Positions 40,801 through 43,058 of a stretch of 64,000 bases of DNA are shown piece after piece. The stretch lies in the NCBI RefSeq assembly GCF_057098645.1, contig NZ_CM169472.1, one strand, 5' to 3'. Made by a program: the position numbers. Positions within the stretch are counted from its first letter, which is position 1. Every line of letters begins with the position of its first letter.

Positions 40801-43058
40801 TCGTCGGTCAGTGGTTGATGGTGCTGGCGCTTTCAGCCGTTACCGGTGGGGCGATAGGCCTGTTGTTCGAAAACGTGTTGATGGTGCTGCTCAAGCCCGT
40901 TCTGCCTGCTGCACTACCGCCTGCCAGTCTCTGGCCGTGGCTGTGGGCGCTTGGCACCATGACAGTCATCTCGCTGCTGGTGGGGCTACGACCGTACCGC
41001 TTGTTGCTGGCAACGCAGCCTTTACGCGTATTACGTAATGATGTGGTAGCGAACGTCTGGCCGCTGAAGTTTTATCTGCCGATTGTCAGTGTGGTGGTTG
41101 TGCTGCTGCTTGCCGGATTAATGGGCGGCAGTATGCTGCTCTGGGCGGTGCTGGCGGGCGCGGTAGTACTGGCTTTGCTGTGCGGTGTGCTGGGCTGGAT
41201 GCTGCTGAATGTACTTCGCCGCATGACGCTGAAATCGCTGCCTCTGCGCCTGGCGGTTAGCCGCCTGTTACGTCAGCCGTGGTCAACGTTAAGCCAGCTT
41301 TCAGCTTTTTCGCTCTCCTTTATGCTGCTGGCGCTGCTGCTGGTGTTGCGTGGCGATCTGCTAGACCGCTGGCAACAACAGCTACCGCCAGAAAGCCCGA
41401 ACTACTTTTTAATCAACATCGCCACAGAACAGGTTACGCCGCTAAAAGCGTTCCTCGCGGAACATCAGATAGTCTCGGAATCGTTTTATCCGGTGGTGCG
41501 AGCGCGGCTGACGGCGATTAACGGCAAGCCGACAGAAGGCAATGAAGATGAGGCGCTCAACCGCGAACTCAATCTTACCTGGCAAAATACGCGGCCCGAT
41601 CATAATCCGATTGTCGCCGGTAACTGGCCGCCAAAAGCTGATGAAGTGTCGATGGAAGAGGGGCTGGCGAAACGCTTAAACGTTATCCTCGGCGATACCG
41701 TGACTTTTATGGGCGATACCCAGGAGTTCCGCGCTAAAGTGACCAGCCTGCGCAAAGTGGACTGGGAAAGTTTGCGGCCTAATTTCTATTTTATTTTCCC
41801 GGAAGGGGCATTAGACGGGCAACCGCAGAGCTGGCTTACCAGTTTCCGCTGGGAGAATGGCAACGGCATGTTGACGCAACTCAACCGCCAGTTCCCGACC
41901 ATTAGCCTGTTAGACATTGGCGCGATTTTAAAACAGGTCGGTCAGGTGCTGGAGCAGGTAAGTCGGGCGCTGGAGGTGATGGTAGTGCTGGTCACCGCCT
42001 GCGGTATGTTGCTGTTGCTGGCACAGGTGCAGGTGGGAATGCGTCAGCGTCATCAGGAGCTGGTGGTGTGGCGCACACTCGGTGCGGGGAAAAAACTACT
42101 GCGTACCACGTTGTGGTGTGAGTTCGCCATGCTTGGGTTTGTTTCCGGCCTGGTGGCCGCAATTGGTGCGGAAACGGCGCTGGCAGTGTTGCAGGCGAAA
42201 GTGTTTGATTTTCCGTGGGAGCCAGACTGGCGATTGTGGATTGTTCTGCCGTGCAGCGGTGCGCTGCTGCTGTCGCTTTTCGGCGGCTGGCTGGGTGCGC
42301 GACTGGTTAAGGGTAAGGCGCTGTTCAGGCAGTTTGCGGGGTGATGACAGGTGTTAGATTGCCTGATGCGCTACGCTTATCAGGCCTACGAAGAGCGTGC
42401 AATATATTGATTTTGCAAGATTGTGTAGGCCGGATAAGGCGTTTACGCCGCATCTGGCATGAACAGTGTGCATTTTGGCAATAAATCTGAAACCAACTGT
42501 CATGTCGGTTTTTTAAAGGCCGAAGGTGGTAAACCTTCGGCCTTAGCGACGTTTCCTCAGTTATTCAATAAACTGACGGATCAGTTCCAGCAGCGCGATT
42601 AGCGCCTTAAGAACGATGAGAACTTTATCGAGAAAAGTTTTCATCCGTTGCTCCCTTAAGGGAGAAAGACAATCACAGCTTACCCTTACGTTGCCTGTAA
42701 CTATGATTTTCTTCATGTGCTAGATGAGGACTGCCTCTCTCCAAATTAGAGCACCAGAATCAGCACCACCTGTATCCTGACCAGGACTTAAAAGTACTTT
42801 TCCGCACTGCGGTAATCCCTTGAGGCAGTATCACTACTAGCGTCGGGATTGTATCGCCAACATAGCTGTTTGAATATGTAGGCATCCTGACTTATAATTC
42901 ACTTGCTAGATGAGGACTGTTTCATTTCTGCCCGGAACCACCAAGTCTTGGGCGGAAAAAATAAAAAAACCGACTGTCATGTCGGTTTTTTTATATCTGT
43001 ATTCTGGTGCAACCATTCTGTTCTCACGACAATCGCCGTTTCAGAATACCGCCCATCA

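Follow-up and report, generated by a model that had tools for sequence, protein, structure and literature searches.

The stretch of 64,000 nucleotides analysed here (contig NZ_CM169472.1 of NCBI RefSeq assembly GCF_057098645.1; hereafter the window) carries a block of ~567 bp (42474..43040) between the stop codons of ybbP and mnmH. This block seems to be an accessory, chromosomally encoded type I toxin-antitoxin module that belongs to the DinQ/AgrB (dql) family and is a paralogue of the canonical dinQ-agrAB locus; the probability of this reading is put at roughly 85%. A toxin gene on the minus strand and a divergent small-RNA gene on the plus strand make up the module. The system is not new: it falls into a family that has been described and is annotated in databases, the dinQ-like (dql) family of Kristiansen et al. 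2016 (PMC5066626). A type I module had been proposed for this intergenic region from the nucleotide sequence alone (the original prediction), and that interpretation is now supported by the NCBIfam DinQ model, the Rfam AgrB model and a block-for-block alignment of the leader with those of K-12 dinQ and plasmid dql loci.

The toxin open reading frame (ORF; 42561..42644, minus strand) encodes 27 amino acids (aa) followed by a stop codon. It translates to MKTFLDKVLIVLKALIALLELIRQFIE, a DinQ-like peptide, as the original prediction had stated. The likeness to DinQ that it had suggested was found to be correct: the ALIALLELIR core is identical in K-12 DinQ (VIDKAIIVLGALIALLELIRFLLQLLN). In the profile searches that had been suggested as a check, the peptide scored 40.9 bits with the NCBIfam toxin_DinQ model NF041472 (an equivalog model; cutoff 30), with profile positions 1-22 of 22 covered, and stayed below the cutoff of the DqlB model NF041473 (24.5 bits; cutoff 35). 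Its identity is 67% to DinQ and 54-67% to DqlB peptides. V11, L12, A14, I16 and the LELIR motif are invariant across the DinQ/dql family in the peptide alignment. These signature residues, together with a sigma-70 promoter, a terminator and the spacing of the Shine-Dalgarno (SD) sequence, are the features by which Kristiansen et al. 2016 recognise dql loci, and all of them are present. The ORF had been described as unlisted; in fact, RefSeq already annotates it as 'dinQ' (WP_349808740.1, "damage-inducible type I toxin DinQ"), and the peptide is deposited under this name on >1000 contigs.

The toxin promoter was placed by alignment with the -10 and +1 of K-12 dinQ. The -10 element is TACAAT (42853..42848) and the predicted start is G42841 (promoter segment 42841..42853, minus strand). 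This gives a predicted 5' untranslated region (5' UTR) of 197 nt, compared with 194 nt in K-12, and a predicted toxin mRNA of ~327 nt. Mapping of the K-12 transcript reproduces the published positions of the SD (184), the start codon (195) and the AgrB target (89-120), which validates the +1 assignment. At the other end of the mRNA, a perfect 12-bp inverted repeat (42516..42544, minus strand) forms the hairpin GGCCGAAGG...CCUUCGGCC, followed by UUUAAAAAA. This hairpin corresponds in position to the dinQ terminator, whose K-12 form is a GC-rich hairpin followed by UUUAA.

Within the module, E. coli alleles are nearly identical and covariation among alleles of this site is uninformative; therefore, the comparison was made across the family. 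Eight leaders were aligned: that of the window, that of K-12 dinQ and those of six plasmid dinQ/dql loci. They share the -10, a 5'-end motif, the blocks AAGUCCUGG, CAGGUGGUGCU, UGCUCU and GACAGGCA, and the SD spacing. Their 5' UTRs are 190-209 nt long. Each of the eight has the 3:4 hairpin as well as a 2:3 duplex and a long 1:2 duplex, and the latter takes in the extreme 5' end. In the window, the SD sequence GGGAG (42655..42651) is located 6 nt ahead of the toxin ATG and is enclosed in the SD hairpin CUCCC-UUAA-GGGAG (elements 3:4; 42651..42664, minus strand), with a local fold of -9.0 kcal/mol. Element 3 (UCUUUCUCC; 42661..42669, minus strand) can take either the SD (closed form) or element 2 (open form) as its partner, and the 2:3 duplex of GGAGAGAGG with UCUUUCUCC has an energy of -22.3 kcal/mol, compared with -20.3 kcal/mol in K-12 dinQ. 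Element 1 (ACUGCCUC; 42822..42829, minus strand; ~+13..+20 of the mRNA) is complementary to element 2 (GAGGCAGU). The 1:2 pairing, with the 5'-end GCUAG:CUAGC (a/a') included, amounts to -34.3 kcal/mol and is predicted to keep the full-length mRNA closed. The three energies are comparable with those of K-12 and the plasmid members, as in a dql leader, which resembles that of dinQ and has four elements whose 1:2, 2:3 and 3:4 pairings are mutually exclusive.

On the plus strand, the promoter TTGAAT-17-TATAAT (42870..42898; 10 of 12 positions in the promoter scan) and the intrinsic terminator at 42961-42994, in which a T run follows a perfect inverted repeat of 14 bp, were located just where they had been predicted. 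They bound an AgrB-family antisense small RNA of ~88-90 nt (42905..42994), which consists of a 5' antisense segment, a stem-loop (CUGCCCGG...UUGGGCGG) and the terminator. The promoter is back to back with the toxin promoter, and its position relative to the 5' end of the RNA is that of the K-12 agrB promoter. The segment 42906-42994 matches Rfam AgrB (RF02891) with 53.6 bits, compared with a gathering score of 40, and covers model positions 1-84 of 84. The fold of the RNA has an energy of -33.9 kcal/mol (z = -5.4). Judging from homology with agrB, its transcription probably starts at 42905 or 42906. The weak Rfam matches (STnc370, OrzO-P, RNAI, MicC and others) are below their gathering scores and are centred on the terminator hairpin. 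The two OrzO-P matches, for example, have 24.1 and 19.5 bits (gathering score 60) and are confined to the terminator region, which does not place the module in the ZorO/OrzO family. The AgrB-like RNA is unannotated in every RefSeq record fetched, where only the toxin coding sequence (CDS) is annotated.

The link between the two genes is a repeated sequence. Positions 42904-42919 are identical to 42718-42733 over 16 nt, and the latter segment is 74-89 nt upstream of the toxin ATG. The original prediction put this match at the 5' end of the small RNA. The identity itself is exact, but its first 1-2 nt may be upstream of the transcript, as homology with agrB suggests. The repeat widens to 20 of 22 nt (42898-42919 and 42712-42733). 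When the intergenic region was shuffled 1000 times with its dinucleotides preserved, the longest exact direct repeat averaged 8.7 nt and never exceeded 13 nt, short of the 16 nt observed; the match is therefore not due to chance. The small-RNA target in the leader (42719..42743, minus strand) includes element 2 GGAGAGAGG (42734-42742) and the a' sequence CUAGC, and pairing extends over ~24 bp when G:U pairs and one mismatch are counted. The predicted complementarity to the toxin leader thus holds, and its position is typical of the family: the pairing target is 73-136 nt upstream of the start codon in the window and ~73-143 nt upstream across the loci of the cross-matrix described below. As in AgrB, the 5' segment is complementary to the leader upstream of the ribosome binding site, and the RNA gene is divergent from the toxin gene and does not overlap it.

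By predicted duplex energy, the best partner of the small RNA is its own leader. For the first 30 nt of the RNA (RNAduplex), the cognate energy is -41.9 kcal/mol in the window and -51.5 kcal/mol for AgrB-dinQ, whereas the two crossed pairs gave -33.7 and -26.1 kcal/mol and AgrA-dinQ gave -36.0 kcal/mol. AgrA is experimentally ineffective according to PMC5066626 and PMC8594479. Because the crossed energies are no better than that of AgrA-dinQ, the ybbP-mnmH system and dinQ-agrAB are predicted to be insulated from each other in one cell. An AgrB-family RNA is next to the toxin gene at all six plasmid loci, and in a cross-matrix of small RNAs and leaders the cognate pair was the best in every column. 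The window RNA and the window leader pair with -60.0 kcal/mol, and the next-best small RNA on this leader reaches -49.0 kcal/mol. The best non-cognate pairing of the window RNA is with the dqlB leader of an IncI-gamma/K1 plasmid (-48.3 kcal/mol), for which that plasmid's own RNA gives -59.2 kcal/mol. Hence the small RNA is predicted to be specific for its own leader. The interacting sequences show a coordinated, three-way covariation relative to K-12: the mRNA 5' end, the target and the small RNA have GCUAG, CUAGC and GCUAG in the window, and GUUAG, CUAAC and UUAG in K-12.

The plasmid that provides this non-cognate leader comes from Salmonella (L013) and has tandem Agr copies (1062-1149 and 1308-1395), an arrangement comparable to agrA plus agrB in K-12. 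One copy pairs well with the dqlB leader (-59.2 kcal/mol) and the other is decayed (-32.1 kcal/mol). A match to the sok antitoxin is found near these copies (1427-1568). The hha genes adjoin the dql genes both on this plasmid and on a Citrobacter plasmid (L012).

The way in which the module might work is suggested by dinQ itself, for which experiments on DinQ and AgrB are reported by Weel-Sneve et al. 2013 (PMC3567139) and in PMC5066626. According to the latter, the full-length dinQ mRNA is inert because elements 1 and 2 are paired and hairpin 3:4 sequesters the SD. Loss of 44 nt from the 5' end leads to 2:3 pairing and opens the SD. Binding of AgrB to G88-A119, including element 2, re-closes the hairpin and leads to cleavage by RNase III. 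By analogy, transcription, processing, toxicity and neutralisation in the window can be outlined as follows. The minus-strand sigma-70 promoter (-10 TACAAT; start at ~42841) would give the ~327-nt mRNA with its leader of ~197 nt. In the full-length form, the 5' GCUAG and element 1 ACUGCCUC would pair with element 2 and CUAGC in mid-leader, so that the SD GGGAG is buried and no toxin is made. Removal of the 5' end, comparable to the +44 processing of dinQ, would free element 2 for pairing with element 3; the SD would then open, and the 27-aa hydrophobic peptide would be translated and, in analogy with DinQ, might insert in the inner membrane. The strong divergent promoter would supply the ~90-nt AgrB-like RNA, whose 5' ~25 nt could pair with element 2 and its flank. 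This pairing would re-close the SD hairpin and probably trigger cleavage by RNase III.

The RefSeq product name implies a different reading, that this is simply dinQ itself, an SOS-induced toxin repressed by LexA. The peptide does pass the NCBIfam equivalog model for DinQ, and the name dinQ was given by the Prokaryotic Genome Annotation Pipeline (PGAP). However, its identity to DinQ is only 67%, with differences at the N terminus and in the C-terminal tail, and the locus is not gor-arsR. The canonical dinQ-agrAB locus between gor and arsR was matched in 5422 of the 5426 complete E. coli genomes; therefore, the ybbP-mnmH copy is an extra paralogue, a second copy and not dinQ. Moreover, nothing in the window corresponds to the LexA box that overlaps the -10 in K-12 (CTGTATGATTATCCAG): the aligned window sequence is GCGATACAATCCCGACG, and the box is likewise missing in the plasmid copies. 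No CTGT-N8-ACAG sequence with at most one mismatch occurs in 42345-43055. Because the LexA box is missing, unlike in dinQ, this copy is probably outside SOS induction and the name "damage-inducible", which derives from the name of the hidden Markov model, is probably wrong for it. Identity with dinQ thus seems very unlikely.

In keeping with a paralogue of dinQ, the module resembles K-12 dinQ-agrA/agrB in its 27-aa single-helix peptide with the ALIALLELIR core, its leader of ~195 nt with the 1:2, 2:3 and 3:4 pairings, and its divergent antisense RNA of ~85-90 nt, which is built from an antisense segment at the 5' end, a stem-loop and a terminator whose hairpin is of similar type. In both, the target is located ~75-140 nt ahead of the start codon. 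Homology to K-12 dinQ-agrAB is 85% over 53 nt in the CDS, 82% over 44 nt in a leader block and 74-77% in the small RNA. In addition to the genomic site and the LexA box, the two differ in distribution (accessory in the window, near-universal for dinQ), in the number of Agr copies (one, compared with two in K-12), in the start codon (ATG instead of GTG), in both termini of the peptide and in the length of contiguous complementarity, which is shorter in the window. The interaction sequence has also diverged (GCUAGAUGAGGACUG in the window, GUUAGAUAAGAACUC in K-12), and little cross-talk is predicted.

Plasmid dqlB-agrB loci share with the window the architecture of the family, the missing LexA box, a constitutive-type -10 and the AgrB-family RNA beside the toxin gene; the tail RQFIE of the window peptide also resembles RQFID of DqlB. 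On the other hand, DqlB has 31-32 aa with a 7-residue helix insertion that is missing in the window peptide. Plasmid copies act in post-segregational killing, whereas the chromosomal copy has no obvious replicon to stabilise. Toxicity of plasmid DqlB, rescue by AgrB and the addiction function were shown in 2025 for pOXA-48 (PMC12365149) and the IncX3 plasmid pOXA-484 (PMC12317039), and ~1640 plasmids, mostly conjugative, carry relatives annotated dinQ or dqlB. The zorO-orzO, tisB-istR1 and shoB-ohsC systems, other trans-encoded type I systems of E. coli, are similar in that the long 5' UTR of the toxin mRNA is paired by a small RNA whose gene is divergent and does not overlap, and in that the primary transcript is inert until 5' processing activates it, but the module does not belong to their sequence families. 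In the searchable text of the papers found, neither the ybbP-mnmH locus nor the exact peptide is named.

The module is carried by 1317 of the 5426 complete E. coli genomes (~24%). Alignment of occupied and empty sites showed that the block is either there or missing as a single unit, with approximate ends at 42474 and 43040; the empty-site junction reads GTGCA(C/T)|AGAAT. Empty ybbP-mnmH sites from which the module is cleanly missing were found in ATCC 25922, MS1718 and 19AR0253. The same site has an Rhs-associated insertion in H37, and in some strains ybbP and mnmH are no longer neighbours. In K-12, a ~7.3-kb island (rhsD-ybbC-ylbH-ybbD-ylbI-ylbG) fills the gap between the two genes. A search for remnants of the module in this region (K-12 519500-534500) found none, and homology with the window ends exactly at the ybbP and mnmH stop codons. 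Outside E. coli, the module occupies the same site in Escherichia sp. E1V33, with 97.3% identity over 1.8 kb, and both the ORF and the 16-nt match are conserved. Among species-representative genomes, it is the only one in which the 16-mer occurs twice at the 186-nt spacing.

Several observations weigh against a functional module of this family. The toxin -35 (TATTCA) is poor. Perfect complementarity between the small RNA and its target is short, 14-16 nt, compared with the 34-bp duplex of AgrB and dinQ. In a fold model of SD accessibility, the probability of an unpaired SD was 0.013 for the full-length mRNA, rose to 0.14-0.18 once the 5' end had been shortened by 20-60 nt, and dropped to 0.012 when the target of the small RNA was blocked. 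These shifts are as expected, but the positive control, K-12 (0.12, 0.33 and 0.02), reproduced the published switch only in part, and because of this weak control the model is taken as supporting, not decisive. Disrupted alleles are also known. In the E. coli strain Yu5, a 108-bp deletion (window 42623-42730) has taken away the toxin start codon together with the SD and a portion of the leader. It runs between two short repeats, GATGAGAAC (CDS) and GATGAGGAC (leader). Yu5 is thus a natural toxin knockout, and RefSeq still annotates a 25-aa 'dinQ' there. Rare alleles in the cluster of 51-aa forms (P0003, P0004, P0005 and P0012) have R47L (144 contigs), L42Q (57 contigs), L43Q or E44K. These radical substitutions hit the helix or the invariant ELIR motif and may attenuate the toxin, and the module may be decaying in some lineages.

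A related side observation concerns the coding region at 42616-42625. Its sequence, GATGAGAACT, matches the small-RNA seed GATGAGGACT in nine of ten positions, and the mismatch would become a G:U pair. The small RNA might thus have an additional, weaker pairing site in this segment, which is also the substrate of the Yu5 deletion.

Taken further, the disrupted alleles and the weak -35 would fit a decaying relic, in which the small RNA, the toxin or both are no longer expressed or functional and conservation reflects recent common descent; since the E. coli alleles are near-identical, purifying selection is not demonstrable within the species. Against this, the dominant allele (>1000 contigs) is intact in its ORF, ATG, SD, both promoters and both terminators. 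The switch elements and the small-RNA match have been kept intact despite ~25-35% divergence from other family members, and an intact module is found in a second Escherichia species at 97% identity. A relic is therefore considered quite unlikely.

The start codon also has to be considered. The 27-aa frame is nested in a 51-aa ORF that begins at an upstream ATG (42716) without an SD. This in-frame ATG is where RefSeq WP_001308457.1 starts, a call made by PGAP in some genomes, and the longer form is widely deposited; if it were the real product, the 27-aa reading would be wrong. Rare variants, which occur in both halves of the annotated 51-aa forms, do not separate the two readings, a further point on the unfavourable side. 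On the other hand, GGGAG is positioned 6 nt before ATG 42644, and what the family alignment keeps is the SD, then AACGG, then an ATG or GUG start, not the upstream frame. DinQ is a 27-aa product (PMC5066626), and a 51-aa start would fall inside the small-RNA target. RefSeq start calls, in addition, do not agree among family members, with a product of 27 aa called in O145, one of 51 aa in strain 135 and one of 102 aa for the Citrobacter plasmid pS39-2 (the loci concerned are window 42561-42716, L006 627-782 and L012 852-1157). A 51-aa product is thus highly improbable, and the 27-aa peptide is taken as the toxin.

For the type I module of the DinQ/AgrB family, the value of the locus is mainly in annotation: the antitoxin RNA is unannotated, start calls are inconsistent and the "damage-inducible" name is doubtful. 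Knowledge of how the family works is unchanged by it. Through it, about one quarter of E. coli strains naturally have a second DinQ/AgrB pair, predicted to be orthogonal to the canonical one, which is usable for studies of the specificity of antisense recognition and of copy-number variation in toxin modules. It is conceivable, but unlikely, that this DinQ paralogue is transcribed constitutively and independently of LexA, has an antitoxin RNA orthogonal to AgrB and plays a role distinct from that of SOS-linked dinQ. If so, candidate roles would be stabilisation of a recombination-prone, Rhs-associated chromosomal site, or a partial 'anti-addiction' effect in which the small RNA would weaken the action of related dql toxins from plasmids.

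Downstream of the toxin gene, the small-RNA terminator hairpin is present in a second copy (42490..42514, plus strand; a direct repeat with 24 of 25 nt, then T6), which is terminator-like on both strands and missing from empty sites. It is possibly a terminator or insulator against read-through from ybbP, an additional hairpin at the 3' end of the toxin mRNA, or what is left of another agr copy. The two 25-nt repeats (42490-42514 and 42967-91) were also considered as the footprint of an insertion, and this was rejected: no target-site duplication is visible, and because empty sites retain no hairpin copy, both repeats are internal to the module.

Directly after the ybbP stop codon, at 42355-42465, there are palindromes of the repetitive extragenic palindromic (REP)/bacterial interspersed mosaic element (BIME) type, with weak Rfam matches to naRNA4 and ES036. 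The number of these elements varies by strain, with one extra copy in MS1718. Elsewhere in the window and unrelated to the module, the Rfam small RNA STnc480 was found at 56013-56079 with 87.1 bits, compared with a gathering score of 72.

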